This document shows, piece after piece, positions 2,831-61,800 of a stretch of 61,891 nt of DNA. The DNA is from a virus (taxonomy: Duplodnaviria; Caudoviricetes): the IMG/VR virus record IMGVR_UViG_3300044800_000230, positions 1-61,891 of that record, one strand, 5' to 3'. Numbering within the stretch: position 1 is the first letter of the stretch; each line of letters starts with the position of its first letter. Both the position numbers and the translations under genes were made by a program. The notes below the pieces were generated by a model. That model did no database searches. It worked only from the letters and a program-made list of their open reading frames with translations, and had not been told where the DNA came from.

Positions 2831-4617
2831 AAAACCCATTGGTTACCTTGGGTCGGTATCTTAAACGGTCACTTCAGGACAATTACGGACCTGAAGCCGA
2901 TTACTGGTATTACCCTGTTTTCAAAGATACTCAGGCAGGGGTTCCTGTTGAGGAAACAAATGCCCTGACCTGTTCCGATGTCTTTAAATGTGTGAGGGTC
3001 ATCTCCGAGACTGCCTCGTCAATCCCCCTTATCCTCTATCGCTGGCTTGATGGGGGTGGAAAGGAGAGGGCTGAAGATCATTACCTCTCCAACATCCTGA
3101 AGATCGAACCCAATCCATTGATGACTTCGATGCAATATCGGGAGGTTATTTTTAACCATCTTCTAACATGGGGAAACCACTATTCTCAGATTATTCATAA
3201 TGGTTTTGGGCGGGTTGATTCTCTTTGGCCTCTTCGACCCGACAGGATGGAGGTCAAACAAGATCCTGGCACGGCATATGGTCTTATTTACCGATACCGC
3301 CCAAGTATGGGTGGAACGATTGATATTCCCATGGATGAAGTTCTTCATTTCGCAGGTCTTGGTTTCAATGGCATCATTGGATATTCACCGATTGCCCTTC
3401 ACAGGGAATCAATAGCCCTCTCCATGGCGGCTGCAGAGTTTGCCTCTCGCTTCTTTGGTAATGATGCAACCCCAGGTGGAATTCTTGAACATCCAGGAAA
3501 GTTGGGTCCTGTAGCCCATGAGAATCTTAAAAAAGCACTCATAGCAGAACATTCGGGGGGAAAGAATAGATGGAAACCCATGATCCTTGAAGAAGGGATG
3601 AAATGGAATACCATCACAGTCCCGATGAAGGATGCCCAATTCATTGACATTCGAAAATATCAACGGACCGATATCTGTGGAATCTACCGTGTCCCACCCC
3701 ATCTGATTGGAGACCTTGATCGTGCAACCTTCACGAATATTGAACACGAGTCGATGAGTTTCGTGACAAATACGATCCGTCCGTGGTGTGTGAGATTCGA
3801 ACAGACATTGAATAAGAAACTACTTGGCCCCATTGAGAAGAACAGATATTTCTTTGAACATCTTCTTGAAGGTCTCATGAGAGGAGATGTTGAGACCAGA
3901 TATAAAGCCTATGCCATAGGGAGGAACTGGGGTTGGCTTTGCGCCGACGATATCCGTGAGATCGAGAATATGAACCCACTTCCCAAGGGACAGGGAAAGA
4001 TTTACTTAGTTCCGCTGAATATGATACCCGCCGATCAAGTTGGTCAGGCTCCAGCCAAACCGATTCCGGCAAAAGACCAGGGAGTCATCGATGTCCAACC
4101 CGTCGACCAGAAATTACTCCCACAGAAAAAGAGCGACGAGCAGGAAGCCTTCGAGATAAGAAATCGCCTAATGCTCTCTTTCAGGAGACTTTTTGAGGAC
4201 GGGACAGCTCGTATTGTGCGTCGTGAAGTGATTGGTATAAAAAAGGCTCTGAATCGTCCAGATTATGACAGCTTTTATCGGGATATAGATGACTTTTATA
4301 AAGAATTGCCTCTCTTTATCATGAATACAATGAGTCCAATTGTTTCAAGTTTTAATGAATTGTCGAATGAGAGTGATGGTGCTGAGATTCTGAACCGTTT
4401 CATCATTGACCATATCAAGGAATCTCGGTCAGACATTCAGACGTGGGAAGGGTCACTGATCCAGAAAGAAAGATTTGAGAAGAATGACAAGGCTATTGAA
4501 ACCAAATTGAATGGATGGGTAGGTGAACGACCGGTAAAAGAAGTAGAAGGTTTCTATAGATACAACAACGGAATATTAAACTCGGATAAAGTTAGATATA
4601 CAGAAGCATCAACATGA
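2827..4617 (+). CDS. Portal protein (HK97 family) with long C-terminal extension
   Basis: GNHY, LWPLRPDRM, EVLHF, GYSPI, ICGIYRVPPHLIG, IREIENMNP motifs; ATG overlaps the terL stop. Confidence 0.93.
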   Translation: MKNPLVTLGRYLKRSLQDNYGPEADYWYYPVFKDTQAGVPVEETNALTCSDVFKCVRVISETASSIPLILYRWLDGGGKERAEDHYLSNILKIEPNPLMTSMQYREVIFNHLLTWGNHYSQIIHNGFGRVDSLWPLRPDRMEVKQDPGTAYGLIYRYRPSMGGTIDIPMDEVLHFAGLGFNGIIGYSPIALHRESIALSMAAAEFASRFFGNDATPGGILEHPGKLGPVAHENLKKALIAEHSGGKNRWKPMILEEGMKWNTITVPMKDAQFIDIRKYQRTDICGIYRVPPHLIGDLDRATFTNIEHESMSFVTNTIRPWCVRFEQTLNKKLLGPIEKNRYFFEHLLEGLMRGDVETRYKAYAIGRNWGWLCADDIREIENMNPLPKGQGKIYLVPLNMIPADQVGQAPAKPIPAKDQGVIDVQPVDQKLLPQKKSDEQEAFEIRNRLMLSFRRLFEDGTARIVRREVIGIKKALNRPDYDSFYRDIDDFYKELPLFIMNTMSPIVSSFNELSNESDGAEILNRFIIDHIKESRSDIQTWEGSLIQKERFEKNDKAIETKLNGWVGERPVKEVEGFYRYNNGILNSDKVRYTEAST

Positions 4618-6072: not shown

Positions 6073-7349
6073 CTCTTCAAGAATTAAGATCGCTTATCGA
6101 TCAAAAATATACCGAACTCGAATCAATGAAAAAGAAGATTGAGTCGGAGAAACGTTCAGCAAATGACGATGAAAAAGTCCTCTCCAATAAACTCATGGAT
6201 GAGATTGAGTGCATCGATGCCGAGGTAACAAGCATTGAGACACAGGACAGAGTCGATGCCATGATTCAGAAAAGAAGACAACCGGTCAATAGACCGATTA
6301 TCGATGATCTCACAAGAGCAGATCAACAGAAGAAAGAGTTCAGGTCTTTTGGAGAGCAACTTCAAGCAGTTGTTTCCGCTGGTACAGGTGGAAGAATCGA
6401 TTCAAGACTTGTCCGGGCGGCAACAGGTATGGACGAGACTATCCCGTCAGATGGTGGATTTCTTGTTCAGACCGAATATGCAGCCGATCTTCTTGGGCGT
6501 GCCTATGAGTTGGCAATCATAGCGCCGAAATGCCGAAAGATTCCCATTAGTGGACCAGCCAACTCGATCAAGATCAATGCAATCGCTGAGACAAGCCGTG
6601 TGACTGGATCTCGTTGGGGTGGTATTCAGGCTTACTGGTCAGCAGAAGCTGGCACCAAGACTCCATCTGCTCCGAAATTTCGCCAGATGGAATTGAGTCT
6701 CAAGAAACTTGTTGGGCTTTGCTATAGCACGGATGAACTCCTTGCTGATGCATCTGCCCTTCAATCTGTTATTACCCAGGCATTCTCGGATGAATTCGCC
6801 TTCATGATGGACGATGCCGTTATCAATGGGACAGGTGTGGGTCAACCTCTCGGTATCATGAAATCAAATGCCCTTGTTGTTGTAAATCGTGCGGGTGCGG
6901 GTGTAATTGCCAACACCGATATTGGTAATATGTGGGCAAGACAGTGGGTTCGGGGAATGACAAAATCCTTTTGGTTCTGCAACCAAGATGTTCTTCCCGC
7001 TTTCTTCGCTATGTCAATGACGGTTGGAACAGGTGGTATGCCTGTATATCTGCCTCCTGGTGGATTGAGCCAGACACCATATTCTACCCTCATGGGTCGT
7101 CCCCTTATCCCAATCGAACAATGCCAAACTTACGGTACAAAAGGCGACCTTATTTTAGCAGACTTCGGGGAATATATTCTTGTCGATAAAGGCGGAATGA
7201 CAAGTGCGAGTTCAATCCATGTCCGTTTTGTGAACGATGAGACTGCATTCAGATTCGTCTATCGCGTGGATGGGCAACCAGCATGGAACGCCGTTTTGAC
7301 TCCTTACAAAGGAAGCAATACCGTCAGCCCATGGGTGGTACTGAGTTAA
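6069..7349 (+). CDS. Major capsid protein (HK97 fold, N-terminal coiled-coil delta domain)
   Basis: DGGFLVQTE, ELLAD, GTGVGQPLGI, TLMGRP, RVDGQP; follows the protease. Confidence 0.93.
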   Translation: MTLQELRSLIDQKYTELESMKKKIESEKRSANDDEKVLSNKLMDEIECIDAEVTSIETQDRVDAMIQKRRQPVNRPIIDDLTRADQQKKEFRSFGEQLQAVVSAGTGGRIDSRLVRAATGMDETIPSDGGFLVQTEYAADLLGRAYELAIIAPKCRKIPISGPANSIKINAIAETSRVTGSRWGGIQAYWSAEAGTKTPSAPKFRQMELSLKKLVGLCYSTDELLADASALQSVITQAFSDEFAFMMDDAVINGTGVGQPLGIMKSNALVVVNRAGAGVIANTDIGNMWARQWVRGMTKSFWFCNQDVLPAFFAMSMTVGTGGMPVYLPPGGLSQTPYSTLMGRPLIPIEQCQTYGTKGDLILADFGEYILVDKGGMTSASSIHVRFVNDETAFRFVYRVDGQPAWNAVLTPYKGSNTVSPWVVLS

Positions 7350-8523: not shown

Positions 8524-9171
8524 ATGGAAATTACGATTAGAAGACTTTCAAGATCAGATGTCACACAGAATTATGTTGATTGGTTGAATGATCCCGAAAT
8601 CAATAAGTATCTCGAAACGAAGATCGTCCCCCAATCAATAGATGACTGTGAAGAATATATAGATAGGATGAGGAAAGACCCGAATCAATTTCATTTTGGA
8701 ATTTTCCATGAAGGAGTTATGGGGAGTTATAATTCCAAAATTATTAGTCACATTGGCAACTGCAAACTCGGTCCCGTGAACTGGGTTCACCGAAATGCTG
8801 ATGTAAGTATCTTCATTGGTGACCATGGAGTATGGGGACAGGGTGCCGGGTATCAGGCTATTATGCTTTTGCTTGACTTTGGGTTTAATATTTTAAACCT
8901 TCATAGGGTGAATGCCCATGTTTACCAGGGCAATGAGAGAAGCGAAAGACTCTTTAAGAAATGTGGATTCAGAGAAGAAGGAGTCGAGATCGACAAAGTT
9001 TGGTTCAATGGAAAATATACAAATGTTATCAACTATGGAAAGTTGAGGGAATCCCATGATTTTGGATGGAAGGACAGTCCTTGTGACTGGAGGAACGGGG
9101 TCTTTCGGGCGGGCGTTCGTCAAGAAAGTATTGATGGGGCGACCAAGGAAAGTAATAGTCTTCAGCCGTGA
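8524..9171 (+). CDS. GNAT/RimJ-like N-acetyltransferase (PseH-like)
   Basis: YVDWLNDPEINKYL, IFIGD..WGQGAG, LNLHRV, NERS..LFKKCGF; 3' end overlaps pseB. Confidence 0.85.
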   Translation: MEITIRRLSRSDVTQNYVDWLNDPEINKYLETKIVPQSIDDCEEYIDRMRKDPNQFHFGIFHEGVMGSYNSKIISHIGNCKLGPVNWVHRNADVSIFIGDHGVWGQGAGYQAIMLLLDFGFNILNLHRVNAHVYQGNERSERLFKKCGFREEGVEIDKVWFNGKYTNVINYGKLRESHDFGWKDSPCDWRNGVFRAGVRQESIDGATKESNSLQP

Positions 9172-10036
9172 CGAGTTCAAGCAACATGAGATGCGGAATG
9201 AGGTCAGTGATCACCGGTTGGAGTTCTTTATAGGCGATGTGAGGGATAGACAGAGGCTCTCACGGGCTTTTGATGGAGTGGATGTGGTGGTTCATGCGGC
9301 GGCTCTGAAGCAGATCCCAGTATGCGAATACAATCCCTTCGAGGCGATTGCGACCAACGTTATAGGGGCACGCAACGTGATGGACGAGGCCATTGACAGG
9401 AAAGTATGGCGGGTAGTTGCCATCTCGACGGATAAGGCTGTCGAACCTGCGAACGTCTATGGGAAGACGAAGGGACTCTCGGAGGCATTGTTTGTGAGTG
9501 GGAACTCATATACGGGACGCAAGCCGACGAAGTTTTCCGTTGTGCGATATGGAAATGTCGTGAATTCACGTGGTTCGGTTATCCCATTCTTCATGCGACT
9601 CAAACGACAGGGAGAAAAAGTCTTCCCGATTACAGACTTGAAGATGACACGGTTCTGGATAACCCTTGTTCAAGCGGTCGATCTCGTTCTCTATGCGATC
9701 CAGACTATGCAGGGTGGGGAGATATTCGTCCCTAAGATTCCCTCGATGAAGGTAGTTGACCTTGCAAAGTCTATCGAACCAGATTGCGAGTTTAAGGAAA
9801 TCGGTCGTCGCAAGGGCGAGAAACTCCATGAGATCATGGTCTCGGAGGTTGAGGCCGAGGACACACGGAACTACGAAGGACATTATATCATTCAACCTGC
9901 CTTCCATTGGTGGAGGATGGATGATGGGAATGGAGGTGAAAAGGTTCCAGCAGATTTCAGATATTCGAGCGACAAGAATGAAAAGTGGCTCGATGTGAAC
10001 GATTTGAGGAGGTTGTTAGGAATTGAGGAAAGTTAA
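9056..10036 (+). CDS. pseB: UDP-GlcNAc 4,6-dehydratase (inverting)
   Basis: VTGGTGSFG, SRDEFKQ, HAAALKQ, STDKA, YGKTK, RYGNVVNSRGSV, MTRFWI, GEKLHE. Confidence 0.92.
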   Translation: MILDGRTVLVTGGTGSFGRAFVKKVLMGRPRKVIVFSRDEFKQHEMRNEVSDHRLEFFIGDVRDRQRLSRAFDGVDVVVHAAALKQIPVCEYNPFEAIATNVIGARNVMDEAIDRKVWRVVAISTDKAVEPANVYGKTKGLSEALFVSGNSYTGRKPTKFSVVRYGNVVNSRGSVIPFFMRLKRQGEKVFPITDLKMTRFWITLVQAVDLVLYAIQTMQGGEIFVPKIPSMKVVDLAKSIEPDCEFKEIGRRKGEKLHEIMVSEVEAEDTRNYEGHYIIQPAFHWWRMDDGNGGEKVPADFRYSSDKNEKWLDVNDLRRLLGIEES

Positions 10037-51728: not shown

Positions 51729-51833
51729 GAAATTCTATCAAATCATTAAGTTTTGGGCAACTATTTTTTGAGGGGGGACTTTACAGCCATGACCACAATT
51801 GATATGCTTCTCTGTTTAGAGGAGGGCGAAACC

Positions 51834-52919
51834 ATGAAAGGGAGCATATCAAATTACAAAGAAAATCGGTGGAGGATCAGGCTGTATTGGAAGGGTCAGA
51901 GAGTGCAGATTTATCGAAACAAGAGAGGGGAGATCCTCGAAGGGAAGGTTCAGGCTCAAAAGGCTTGGATTCACCTAAATCAGGAGATCGAGGATAAAAT
52001 CTTTGACCTATCAGAATGGACTAAGGAGAAGCCTTTCCTTCTAAAGAACGCCTTTGAGATATTCCAGAAGGCCAAACAGTGTGAACAGGAGTGGAAATAC
52101 GCCAGGGGTAGGGCGTTTAAGAATTACATTAAGCCCCAATTTGGTGACATGGATATACGGGAGATTACCACCACTCACGTCAATCAATTTCATGGGCATC
52201 TCATAAGCAAAGGATTGAAGGGAAAGACGATCAAGAATATTCTTGGGGTCCTTCGTTCAATTCTCCGGTTCAACGGCATTGGTCAAAAGATTATATGGCC
52301 CGTGATTGAGGTCCAGACTGAACCTGTGAAGTGGCTCACCCGGGACCAGCAAGAGATGATCATGGAATATCTGGAAGAAGAGGATAGGGCTATCTTCCGG
52401 TTCCTACAAATCACAGGCTGCCGACCTTCTGAGGCGTGTGCTTTACAGAGGGATGACATTGATTGGAGTCATGGGATTATCACCGTCAGACACAGCATGG
52501 GACTTAGGCGAAGGGTGATTGATCATACAAAGACGTCAAGAATCAAGATTATCCCTATCTCTGTTTTTGGGGAGTATACTTCGATCCTCAAACCTAAAGA
52601 AGTGACTCCTTTTATTTTCAGTCGAGACGGCCGCCCTTACCATAAACAACGCCTTCAAAGGGCGTGGTTAAGAACTGTCAAGAAAGCTCAACAAAAATAT
52701 CCTGTCCCTTCAATCCACGTCAAAAATGCCTTCCGACACTCGATGGCTTCGCAACTCATCAATGCCGGAGTTCCTATCGAAGCGATTTCAAAGATGCTCG
52801 GCCATTCTTCCATCCGTATGACCGAGAAAGTCTATGCCAATATTCTGCCCGAGACAGCTTGGGGATACAGGAAATTAATTTCATTTGAGATAAAAGAAAA
52901 GGCAAATGGCAATTCTTAA
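51834..52919 (+). CDS. int: Tyrosine integrase
   Basis: TGCRPSE, TKT, FRHSMAS, LGHSSIRMT..VY catalytic motifs; start chosen after the GGAGG RBS. Confidence 0.92.
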   Translation: MKGSISNYKENRWRIRLYWKGQRVQIYRNKRGEILEGKVQAQKAWIHLNQEIEDKIFDLSEWTKEKPFLLKNAFEIFQKAKQCEQEWKYARGRAFKNYIKPQFGDMDIREITTTHVNQFHGHLISKGLKGKTIKNILGVLRSILRFNGIGQKIIWPVIEVQTEPVKWLTRDQQEMIMEYLEEEDRAIFRFLQITGCRPSEACALQRDDIDWSHGIITVRHSMGLRRRVIDHTKTSRIKIIPISVFGEYTSILKPKEVTPFIFSRDGRPYHKQRLQRAWLRTVKKAQQKYPVPSIHVKNAFRHSMASQLINAGVPIEAISKMLGHSSIRMTEKVYANILPETAWGYRKLISFEIKEKANGNS

Positions 52920-56813: not shown

Positions 56814-57225
56814 CCAATCATGACAAAGGGTTTGTCTTTGAATATCGCGATAAATTTAAGGGTGACAAGAAACTGCCGTGCCTCAAATGTTCTGATAGAA
56901 GGATATTGGCGTGTTCGAAGATAAAACTAAACGGGAAGATTGGGTGTGTGAAATTTAACAAATATGTCAGCCCGAGGGATGGGAGGAGGTGAGAAAATGG
57001 AAAAGACTAAAGTGCAAGAAGCAATTTTGGAATATCAAAAGAAGCTCATCGAGCATTCTAAGATTGAAAAGGAATCTTCTGAGATTACTAAATCCATTTC
57101 TTTGCCAGAAAAGCGAGTTGAGTTATCACTGGAAGAAGTAACGGAAGCAAGAAAGAAGATGATTTTGGCAATTCAGAAAGAATGTGGTTGTTAATCAATG
57201 CGGGATTCTAATGGGAGGAGGTGAA

Positions 57226-57290
57226 TTGGGTTACATTTTCTTCGATTTGATTATTTTAGATTCGGTTTCCTTAATTTAAATTCAATTCAC
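57226..57290 (+). repeat. TT-NNN pentamer array 1 (13 units), putative guide ncRNA
   Basis: TTGGG TTACA TTTTC TTCGA TTTGA TTATT TTAGA TTCGG TTTCC TTAAT TTAAA TTCAA TTCAC, then TAAAAGGAGG. Confidence 0.9.
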
Positions 57291-57305
57291 TAAAAGGAGG
57301 TTATT

Positions 57306-57569
57306 ATGCAAAGAGATTCAGAGAAATCAAGGAAAAGTTGGGAATTAGGGAATGAAATTATTGTTAAATATTTGGAGGGGAAAATTGAGGGGACCGATAA
57401 AATCAGGGTTGCCCAAACGGCCTGTAATATCCATGCCCGAATGGTGGCAAGCGAGGCCAACATGGAAACGAATAGGCTGGTATTGGGCAAGATGATTTAT
57501 TCGGATGAAAAAGAATTGAAAAAATATATTCAGAGTTCCATGCCCCAGATGATGATTGAGAAGAAGTGA
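57306..57569 (+). CDS. Hypothetical helical protein between arrays 1 and 2
   Basis: AAGGAGG RBS; 87 aa. Confidence 0.7.
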   Translation: MQRDSEKSRKSWELGNEIIVKYLEGKIEGTDKIRVAQTACNIHARMVASEANMETNRLVLGKMIYSDEKELKKYIQSSMPQMMIEKK

Positions 57570-57570
57570 G

Positions 57571-57670
57571 TTGTTTTGGGTTGGATTAGGTTGTTTTTTA
57601 TTATGTTGCTTTCCTTTGGATTACTTTTGTTTAGGTTACGTTCGATTTAATTTAATTGTATTCATTTTAA
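57571..57670 (+). repeat. TT-NNN pentamer array 2 (20 units), putative guide ncRNA
   Basis: TTGTT TTGGG TTGGA TTAGG TTGTT TTTTA TTATG TTGCT TTCCT TTGGA TTACT TTTGT TTAGG TTACG TTCGA TTTAA TTTAA TTGTA TTCAT TTTAA, then AAAGGAGG. Confidence 0.92.
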
Positions 57671-57684
57671 AAAGGAGGTCTATC

Positions 57685-58233
57685 ATGTATGAAATCGAAA
57701 GAGAATTAGAATCATTGTGTCCATATTTACAGAATAAACCGAAACAGAGGGAATTCATTCTTGATAAAGATGGAAAATGGGTAGAGAAACCAGAACCGAC
57801 CATCAAGAGAAATCGGGTTGATCCCGAAGAGGCTGGCTATCATGACGAAAAAGGATGGTATATCCCATCAAGGCAGATTTGGGCATCCATGAGAAATTCA
57901 TCTGGTCAGGTTCAACTTGGGAAGAGTAAATTAAACAGGCTTTCTAAGTTTTATATTGCTACGGTTCGGGTTGAACCAGCACAAATTTACATCCACAAGA
58001 AAAAACCCGATGCGATTTACAATGACCCCTGTTTTAAAGAAAGCAAAAAGGGTGGGGAAATGGTTTATAATCCTCGGCCTATGTTCAATTCTTGGAAGGC
58101 AAAAATCAAAATCGTTGTTTTGGAAGATTCGATTCCAGAAGAGAAGATTGAGGAATGTTTGATTTATGCCGGACTCTATAAGGGCATTGGATCAAGAGCA
58201 CCGGAATTTGGGAGGTTTAGGATTGTGAAATGA
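57685..58233 (+). CDS. RAMP/Cas7-like protein, copy 1 (182 aa)
   Basis: Beta1 ELESLCPYL, WYIPSRQIWASMR (cf. IPGSSxKGxxR of Cas7/Csm3), C-terminal G-rich loop GLYKGIGSRAPEFGRF. Confidence 0.7.
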   Translation: MYEIERELESLCPYLQNKPKQREFILDKDGKWVEKPEPTIKRNRVDPEEAGYHDEKGWYIPSRQIWASMRNSSGQVQLGKSKLNRLSKFYIATVRVEPAQIYIHKKKPDAIYNDPCFKESKKGGEMVYNPRPMFNSWKAKIKIVVLEDSIPEEKIEECLIYAGLYKGIGSRAPEFGRFRIVK

Positions 58234-58234
58234 C

Positions 58235-58319
58235 TTTGTTTGGATTTTATTATGTTGCTTTCCTTTGGATTACTTTTGTTTAGGTTACGTTCGATTTAAT
58301 TTAATTGTATTCATTTTAA
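58235..58319 (+). repeat. TT-NNN pentamer array 3 (17 units, chimera of arrays 4 and 2)
   Basis: TTTGT TTGGA, then the last 15 units of array 2 (TTTTA...TTTAA), all in register. Confidence 0.9.
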
Positions 58320-58333
58320 AAAGGAGGTCTATC

Positions 58334-58882
58334 ATGTATGAAATCGAAAGAGAATTAGAATCATTGTGTCCATATTTACAGAATAAACCGAAACAGAGGG
58401 AATTCATTCTTGATAAAGATGGAAAATGGGTAGAGAAACCAGAACCGACCATCAAGAGAAATCGGGTTGATCCCGAAGAGGCTGGCTATCATGACGAAAA
58501 AGGATGGTATATCCCATCAAGGCAGATTTGGGCATCCATGAGAAATTCATCTGGTCAGGTTCAACTTGGGAAGAGTAAATTAAACAGGCTTTCTAAGTTT
58601 TATATTGCTACGGTTCGGGTTGAACCAGCACAAATTTACATCCACAAGAAAAAACCCGATGCGATTTACAATGACCCCTGTTTTAAAGAAAGCAAAAAGG
58701 GTGGGGAAATGGTTTATAATCCTCGGCCTATGTTCAATTCTTGGAAGGCAAAAATCAAAATCGTTGTTTTGGAAGATTCGATTCCAGAAGAGAAGATTGA
58801 GGAATGTTTGATTTATGCCGGACTCTATAAGGGCATTGGATCAAGAGCACCGGAATTTGGGAGGTTTAGGATTGTGAAATGA
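58334..58882 (+). CDS. RAMP/Cas7-like protein, copy 2 (identical)
   Basis: Translation identical to copy 1. Confidence 0.7.
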   Translation: MYEIERELESLCPYLQNKPKQREFILDKDGKWVEKPEPTIKRNRVDPEEAGYHDEKGWYIPSRQIWASMRNSSGQVQLGKSKLNRLSKFYIATVRVEPAQIYIHKKKPDAIYNDPCFKESKKGGEMVYNPRPMFNSWKAKIKIVVLEDSIPEEKIEECLIYAGLYKGIGSRAPEFGRFRIVK

Positions 58883-58883
58883 C

Positions 58884-58933
58884 TTTGTTTGGATTTTATT
58901 TTTTTTGGTTGATTTTGATTATATTATTTTATT
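58884..58933 (+). repeat. TT-NNN pentamer array 4 (10 units)
   Basis: TTTGT TTGGA TTTTA TTTTT TTTGG TTGAT TTTGA TTATA TTATT TTATT. Confidence 0.8.
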
Positions 58934-59113
58934 AAGCTTGGGTTTGTCAAATATACAATCGCCAAATTAAGAATTTATTAGATTCTAAGCAAAAAGCATT
59001 TGAACTTGCAGAATCTGAATGGAAGGAATCAAGAATGAAAATGATTTCAGCGATAAATGAGGATGCGGAATTGTGTGGAAATGAATGAGGGATTATAATG
59101 GAAGGAGGTTATT

Positions 59114-61648: not shown

Positions 61649-61683
61649 TTCGCTTCTATTCCCTTCTATTCCCTTCTATTCCC
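61649..61683 (+). repeat. Short tandem repeat (TTCTATTCCC)x3
   Basis: Read directly from the sequence. Confidence 0.8.
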
Positions 61684-61800
61684 ATCCACACCCTTCTTAT
61701 TTGCCTCATCTCGCCTTGACTTTACTTTCTGTTTAGTATAAGCATACATCATACACTAAACCTTAATTCTGTGGACATAGGATAGGGTTTCATATGTCTT

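Follow-up and report, generated by a model that had tools for sequence, protein, structure and literature searches.

Four arrays of TTNNN pentamers in a temperate tailed phage, alternating with small genes that include two copies of a gene for a 182-aa protein, very probably constitute a VIPR system (57226-58933), in which the arrays would be UU-anchored vrRNA genes giving rise to DNA-targeting guides. VIPR (Viral Interference Programmable Repeat) systems, described in 2026, have been proposed both to be an ancestor of the RAMPs of CRISPR and to offer a very small platform for programmable DNA binding. As outlined in the preprint text, they combine phage-encoded minimal RAMPs (Vipr) and an accessory vap gene with vrRNAs in which 9-16 YNNGG pentamers precede an invariable tail; the NN bases pair with dsDNA, one target base being skipped per unit, and competing phages or satellites are silenced transcriptionally (10.64898/2026.04.26.720920). 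The text of the cryo-EM preprint on the SUSP1 complex describes one protomer per repeat, with the fixed bases sequestered and the variable bases presented; H17 and D177 recognise G1, R138 and W178 recognise G2, and the Y3 pocket excludes purines (10.64898/2026.04.26.720927).

Following these accounts, the four TTNNN arrays would be transcribed with the operon and processed into vrRNAs, on which the 182-aa Vipr would polymerise into a filament with one protomer per 5-nt unit. Each protomer would grip the invariant UU as positions 2-3 of the published G1-G2-Y3 anchor, leaving the variable bases exposed for discontinuous pairing with foreign DNA. The target would probably be a competing phage or satellite, which would then be silenced as in the published systems.

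Arrangement of the arrays in the phage genome

The window (the whole 61,891-nt stretch of DNA that was analysed) encodes the small and large terminase subunits, portal, protease, major head protein and tape measure of a temperate tailed phage, together with a J-like tail fibre, an integrase (51753-52916) and methyltransferases. The arrays are housed in a block of small early genes on the + strand, in the order array 1, 87-aa gene, array 2, vipr, array 3, vipr, array 4 (Table 1). All four lie on the coding strand and hence, as an earlier note on this DNA had stated, on the sense strand of the operon. A phase-aware scan for perfect (TTNNN)n runs revealed only one other TT run of at least five units in the 61.9-kb window (61649-61683), which is a 10-nt simple tandem repeat. 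The longest run for any other dinucleotide in the window was at most 8, and in 50 mononucleotide shuffles of the window the longest run averaged 3.9 with a maximum of 6. The TTNNN array feature is thus genuine and strongly non-random. The tandem repeat itself (61649-61697; TTCCCTTCTA, 3.5 copies) is non-coding, lies near the contig end and is unrelated to the VIPR arrays.

Table 1 Arrays and genes of the proposed VIPR locus in the window
Feature	Position	Strand	Description
Array 1	57226..57290	+	13 TTNNN units, perfect; putative vrRNA gene
87-aa gene	57306..57569	+	all-helical protein; candidate accessory gene (vap-like)
Array 2 (feature under study)	57571..57670	+	20 TTNNN units, perfect; putative vrRNA gene
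vipr copy 1	57685..58233	+	predicted 182-aa minimal RAMP (Csm3/Cas7-like), phrog_4652; G-loop GIGSRAPEFGRF
Array 3	58235..58319	+	17 TTNNN units, perfect; chimeric
vipr copy 2	58334..58882	+	identical to copy 1
Array 4	58884..58933	+	10 TTNNN units, perfect; after last vipr copy

The intergenic spaces are filled tightly. Arrays 2, 3 and 4 begin 1 nt after a TGA stop codon (57567-57569, 58231-58233 and 58880-58882), just as the earlier note had described. Its companion statement, that arrays 1, 2 and 3 all end directly at the Shine-Dalgarno (SD) motif, applies to array 2, which abuts AAAGGAGG at 57671-57678 (the SD of vipr), and to array 3, which abuts AAAGGAGG at 58320-58327; it fails for array 1, which is separated by the 2 nt TA from AAAGGAGG at 57293-57300. 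The final four units of array 1 (TTAAT TTAAA TTCAA TTCAC) match the conserved A/U-rich tail of the clade. Array 4 has neither this tail nor a downstream Shine-Dalgarno site and may therefore be truncated.

The two vipr copies arose by tandem duplication. An exact 656-nt repeat at an offset of 649 (57596-58251 = 58245-58900) carries the entire 182-aa gene, and the duplicated unit of 649 bp comprises vipr and part of its arrays. Array 3 joins the head of array 4 to the tail of array 2; being a chimera created by the duplication, it does not count as an independent array. The reads bear the duplication out: independent assembly of X1, the only public run (DNA) that contains the stretch and perhaps the source sample, yielded a junction unitig (58222-58274) at a depth of 46, and the depth of the repeat unit was 99.9 vs ~42 for the flanks (~2.4x). 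The junction falls in the 7-nt TTTTATT common to arrays 2 and 4, indicating that the arrays can act as sites of unequal recombination.

Possible traces of a further event surround the cassette. A gene end followed by GGGATTCTAATGGGAGGAGGT lies just upstream of array 1 (57142-57222), and a diverged copy of it occurs at 59024-59109, before the next gene past array 4. Moreover, array 4 is followed by an ORF remnant without obvious start (58935-59088) that is similar to the C-terminal end of the 65-aa gene (56997-57194). It looks as if the VIPR cassette had been inserted between paralogous small genes, immediately past an SD.

The 182-aa protein, its relatives and the anchor

The 182-aa protein belongs to no Pfam or NCBIfam family, and its sole match was phrog_4652 (function unknown). 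An AF2 model built with an alignment of 12 homologues reached a pLDDT of 86. Foldseek returned 49 matches to this model at E ≤ 1e-3, with Csm3, Cmr4 and Cas7 chains first (best 6ifn_F, E 2.9e-5), while the best VIA match was 6ae2_B (Z 10.7, rmsd 2.7 over 134 residues). As judged from the predicted fold, the protein is a minimal Csm3/Cas7-like RAMP, consisting of a single RRM with a glycine-rich loop and a thumb; the structural matches thus bear out the suggestion of the earlier note that the arrays neighbour a RAMP. In the 12-homologue alignment, the C-terminal G-loop GIGSRxPE[FY]GRF was invariant at G167, G169, R171, G176, R177 and F178.

When 1.84 billion representatives were searched with a profile, 1318 proteins were found at E ≤ 1e-3, nearly all of ~170-200 aa, and no named family was found for the 16 proteins checked among the best 150 of these matches. 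By tblastn, 117 phage records were detected, mostly Felixounavirus-like. The match in the Felixounavirus wV8 (E 2e-5) is a 195-aa gene that has a second gene behind it and GGT/NN pentamer arrays with hairpin tails on the flanks. Nine of the ten residues named for SUSP1 in the cryo-EM preprint are present in wV8 under the same numbers, SUSP1 being compared through its published residues. When a profile of the UU clade was compared by hhalign with 16 G-type proteins (including wV8 gp95), the two aligned over 175 columns with a probability of 99.9% and E 3e-31. The homology between the 182-aa protein and the G-type proteins flanked by pentamers thus runs end to end, and it is this homology, together with the architecture, on which we base the assignment of the locus to VIPR.

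Scanning of viral and metagenome contigs yielded 45 loci for comparison. All 18 loci whose protein was at least 35% identical to the query carried NNNTT arrays around the gene and on its strand; at identities of 34% or less, the loci carried NNNGT, NNNGG or NNGGY arrays, and YNNNG and NNNGG repeat types were seen among the distant relatives. In a tree of 33 distinct proteins of at least 170 aa (shorter and duplicate rows left out), the 11 distinct UU-type proteins formed a single clade with a support of 100/100 vs 22 others. We also scanned viral contigs for (TTNNN)12TT irrespective of the protein. Among the 80 loci listed, 76 were simple repeats or poly-T and four had complex triplets; two of these four had a Vipr HMM match, one immediately followed the C-terminus of a Vipr-like ORF, and one was a T-rich coding sequence. 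AA-phased arrays near vipr were found neither in the window nor in the fetched loci. Among the genome contigs scanned for a host, only one distant relative emerged (30% identity, on a Paceibacterota MAG contig), which does not point to a host.

Several of the collected contigs deserve mention in their own right. On contig L013, ~45 GG-anchor pentamers (3569-4063) end at an SD, and the N-terminus of another Vipr-like ORF comes next; as this contig also carries a UU-type VIPR, two anchor types coexist in one phage. Three loci found by the array pattern alone (L051, 2110-3201; L058, minus strand, ~8550-9770; L088, 181-250) contain Vipr-like genes flanked by GTT/NN-type arrays, i.e. with a G-U-U anchor, and in L088 a conserved A/T-rich motif precedes the variable units rather than following them. 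Contig L001 has three arrays in series downstream of vipr (6543-6881). There, a 47-codon ORF (6605-6745) begins within the last unit of the first downstream array, and a short GATAGAAGA-like motif recurs before the second and third arrays. The arrays appear to come in modules.

Alignment of the 33 proteins on wV8 numbering revealed that the anchor and the protein covary. At GG-type loci, D177 and an aromatic residue at 178 were present in 9/9 proteins and H17 in 7/9, the other two being gapped there. The combination A17, A/S177 and W178 characterised 8 of the 10 rows labelled as GY-type, with L018 and wV8 as exceptions (arrays really GGT/NN). UU-type loci had N17, S/A177 and R178 in 11/11 cases. 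R138 was kept in all 33 proteins. As far as the alignment indicates, the published G-reading residues are therefore replaced in the UU clade, H17 by N, D177 by S/A and W178 by R. Both this replacement and the covariation as a whole suggest that the UU occupies the old G2-Y3 positions and that the old G1 has become a third variable base; in UU arrays, 37% of the bases at the former G1 position are G. Since two further loci from the array scan use GTT/NN units, the anchor is evolvable. The UU clade can be regarded as a natural specificity-switch experiment, in which a swap of the anchor goes along with changes at the guanine-reading residues known from cryo-EM, and the covariation points to the residues that determine the anchor code. 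It also suggests mutually orthogonal Vipr/vrRNA pairs, which would serve multiplexing, and prompts one to ask whether DNA pairing follows an altered rule when each unit has three variable bases.

The 87-aa gene accompanies the clade as well. It was found upstream of vipr in 17/18 UU-type loci, the 18th of which begins inside vipr, and was missing from the G-type loci at E ≤ 1e-3. Its product had no Pfam, PHROG or NCBIfam family and only Foldseek matches with E > 3; the best VIA match (Z 7.4) reflected generic helical hairpins, and the ESM Atlas contained unnamed clusters only, at 0.83 or lower. No similarity was detected to the G-type Vipr profile, including its alpha-bundle part, and hence there is no sign that the 87-aa protein is a split-off alpha-bundle. 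Complex prediction for Vipr and the 87-aa protein, run without controls, gave a score of 0.01, which speaks neither for nor against a complex.

Role of the variable triplets

The composition of the units was determined from 44 distinct arrays with 578 units, excluding two runs that are not VIPR and, as a chimera, array 3. Within the variable part, the information content is 0.04, 0.10 and 0.13 bit at the three N positions, and 62/64 triplets are represented, in line with the view of the earlier note that the triplets are non-repetitive and information-bearing rather than products of slippage. The TT positions are 98% T, a figure that is partly circular because the array finder demanded TT. For array 2, all 20 triplets read as previously listed and none has C at position 5; across the 358 variable units of the clade C occurs there in 10%, so that this represents a depletion and not a rule. 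More generally, the variable positions of UU-type arrays are C-poor (10-17%) and G-rich (25-40%), and each array displays a gradient from G-rich at the 5' side to A-rich at the 3' side. This bias may keep the RNA unstructured or mirror a bias of the targets.

A non-circular test of the TT dinucleotide was provided by aligning near-identical relatives, the comparison that the earlier note had put forward. Between L001 and L011, 19/105 NNN positions differed, as opposed to 0/110 TT positions, 3/537 positions of vipr and 4/264 of the 87-aa gene; between L001 and L013, the differences amounted to 20/82 for NNN, 0/86 for TT and 0/537 for vipr. Overall, near-identical relatives thus differed by 18-24% in NNN, 0% in TT and 0-0.6% in vipr: TT is frozen while the triplets turn over, as anticipated. 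All three N positions changed at similar rates (7, 7 and 5 of 35 each for L001 vs L011; 6/27, 8/27 and 6/28 for L001 vs L013). At 83-91% protein identity, the triplets were wholly different, with TT and tail retained. This tail arises from the last five units, which converge on A/U-rich ~TTTAA TTAAA TTAAA TTCAY with the 5-nt phase kept. Since the tail also persists in arrays that have no gene behind them, it is not merely a translation signal. Folding of the arrays did not exceed that of shuffles (z -0.92 to +1.11; array 2 +0.85), as expected for a guide that is coated by protein. The wV8 tail folds into hairpins, and the UU-type tail lacks predicted structure beyond shuffles. A search against Rfam assigned no ribozyme or other family to the arrays and produced only two sub-threshold chance matches to snoRNAs.

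Going beyond the earlier note, which had envisaged RNAs processed from the operon transcript and a RAMP that coats this transcript to block its own ribosome binding site, we consider it likely, on balance of the analyses presented here, that the main role of the arrays is to supply guide RNAs directing a RAMP filament to foreign DNA. That such RNAs pair up with a RAMP, as the note had supposed, agrees with the published VIPR systems, which do so according to the preprint text (10.64898/2026.04.26.720920). Several features speak against the guide reading. The canonical GGY/NN motif is absent, the tail lacks a structure or pseudoknot like that of the characterised type II systems, no ribozyme or other Rfam family was matched, the 87-aa gene corresponds to no described family or fold, and no target emerged from the sequence searched. 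The variable positions are, moreover, C-poor and G-rich, which is not obviously required of a guide that targets either DNA strand. We searched for targets in ~0.4 Mb of sequence (the window and ~45 loci). Whole variable regions, with skips of 0-3, had no target in this set, and sub-windows of 6 or 9 units under five rules gave nothing above shuffled arrays; the only matches were those of arrays with themselves, with their copies or with G-rich arrays of other loci. As the sequence set is tiny, this blank result has no bearing on the pairing rule.

The strongest rival explanation is that the arrays are chiefly cis-regulatory, i.e. that Vipr coats its own mRNA up to the SD and so holds down translation of both the 87-aa gene and vipr, the triplets having no part in targeting. 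The layout lends itself to this idea. Besides the direct contact of arrays 2 and 3 with AAAGGAGG, an SD-like motif follows within 16 nt downstream in 37/45 clade arrays, as compared with 16% of random 16-mers, and a stop triplet lies within 8 nt upstream in 34/45, as compared with 27% of random 8-mers. No + strand terminator was found among the window arrays and no + strand promoter or terminator between arrays and genes; the only + strand promoter-like match that touches an array is weak (9/12) and located at the start of array 3 (58225-58253). From the adjacency of stop codons and SDs, the lack of a + strand terminator and the single weak promoter-like match, we conclude that the arrays are probably part of the operon transcript. 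Occlusion of the ribosome binding site is physically plausible, since a filament that extended to the final unit would lie right next to the SD. We nevertheless regard cis-regulation as an improbable main function. Arrays past the last gene, which have no SD (array 4 of the window; L001 6747-6806 and 6832-6881), keep TT, and those of L001 also keep the tail. Furthermore, the NNN turnover is ~30x faster than that of the flanking genes, which would be needless for a pure binding platform, and the variable bases serve as guides in the homologous systems according to the preprint text (10.64898/2026.04.26.720920). As a secondary effect, however, cis-regulation can coexist with guide function, and the mRNA-embedded layout abutting the SD offers a possible link between guide loading and autoregulation.

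Targeting of RNA in place of DNA, after the manner of the Csm3/Cmr4 backbones that are the closest solved structural matches, appears more improbable still. It would fit the top fold matches, which are backbone subunits of RNA-targeting type III systems, as well as the lack of a DNA target in the ~0.4 Mb searched. The Csm3 fold match is, however, common to the whole RAMP family and no indicator of substrate, and the characterised Vipr relatives bind dsDNA, on either strand, according to the text of both preprints (10.64898/2026.04.26.720920, 10.64898/2026.04.26.720927). Finally, that the arrays, being U-rich, unstructured and placed just upstream of SD sites, are leaders or spacers that enhance translation (e.g. 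through binding of ribosomal protein S1) or DNA-level repeats (curvature, iterons, slippage) without relation to the RAMP is highly improbable in view of the phase of exactly 5 nt, maintained for as many as 20 units with 98% TT (partly circular) and needless for S1 binding, the invariable location on the coding strand without AA-phased arrays near vipr, the use of 62/64 triplets, which slippage would not produce, and the exclusive co-occurrence with one protein clade.

A simple microsatellite or slippage origin, an S1-type leader and DNA curvature were accordingly dismissed. TRAP-like or Hfq-like binding arrays, which are analogies only, were rejected as well, no supporting protein being encoded nearby.

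Returning to the interpretation of the arrays as VIPR guides, we raise as a tentative and rather doubtful extension that the UU clade might form an orthogonal VIPR 'dialect', in which Vipr would load UU vrRNAs only, all three variable bases would be read and the filaments would feed back on translation. If so, a UU Vipr would not be hijacked by the G-type solo vrRNAs of rivals, and cross-loading would not take place; such UU-only loading would explain how UU-type and GG-type systems can stand side by side on L013. The pairing rule would then be unlike the published one of two paired bases and one skipped base, possibly involving contiguous triplets, and the operon arrays flush with an SD would exert feedback on the translation of vipr and the 87-aa gene.

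Comparison with known systems

With the backbones of class 1 CRISPR systems (Csm3, Cmr4, Cas7), the locus shares the RRM/RAMP fold and, as far as the mechanism laid out in the preprint texts applies, a guide RNA that is bound periodically and whose bases are flipped by the thumb. These backbones have a period of 6 nt, whereas the period here is 5 nt and the system is phage-borne with a single type of protein. Tandem Repeats Finder detected no repeat-spacer array with a period of 25-80 nt in the window, a PHROGs scan of 23 large ORFs returned no CRISPR-associated family, and the neighbouring genes had no Cas family matches. The locus thus lacks the repeat-spacer array and the cas operon of class 1 CRISPR-Cas and does not belong to it.

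The similarity to VIPR type II (Escherichia phage SUSP1, Pseudomonas fulva prophage) is far-reaching. Both have a minimal phage RAMP of ~20 kDa with G-loop and thumb, and ~10-20 pentanucleotide units on the gene strand that flank the gene and combine fixed with hypervariable bases. The tract here likewise ends in a conserved 3' tail, if one unlike that of type II, and the 87-aa gene may be the counterpart of the one small accessory gene. The anchor of type II is GGY with two variable bases, whereas here it is UU with three, and the residues H17, D177 and W178, by which type II reads G, correspond to N, S/A and R. While the type II tail is structured with a pseudoknot, the tail of the UU clade is A/U-rich, remains in the 5-nt phase and has no predicted hairpin or pseudoknot. 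Unlike in type II, the arrays occupy the gaps between ORFs, reaching from a stop codon to an SD, and the accessory candidate is located upstream and encodes a helical protein of 87 aa with no detectable similarity to anything.

Other repeat types have been reported within the family. Alternative VIPR repeats (NNNGG, YNNNG, NNNNG) are named in the Methods of the preprint (10.64898/2026.04.26.720920), and the text of the Evo-PIN preprint mentions the non-canonical cores GAC/NN, CAC/NN, WGT/NN and TGH/NN (10.64898/2026.10.21.760802). So far as these texts describe them, such variants have in common with the present locus the pentamer period, a Vipr-like neighbour and a relaxed anchor with at most three variable bases; the variants named there have one G or more, or else a different core that is not UU, in contrast to TT+NNN. 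A UU anchor is not named in the text of the VIPR and Evo-PIN preprints and may appear in their logo figures (Figs S17 and S10A); a literature search for a UU-type repeat notation found nothing relevant. Since the units follow neither the canonical GGY/NN (YNNGG) pattern nor NNNGG, YNNNG or NNNNG, the locus is most likely a variant rather than a plain member of VIPR, with a UU anchor that is new with respect to the G-containing published motifs.
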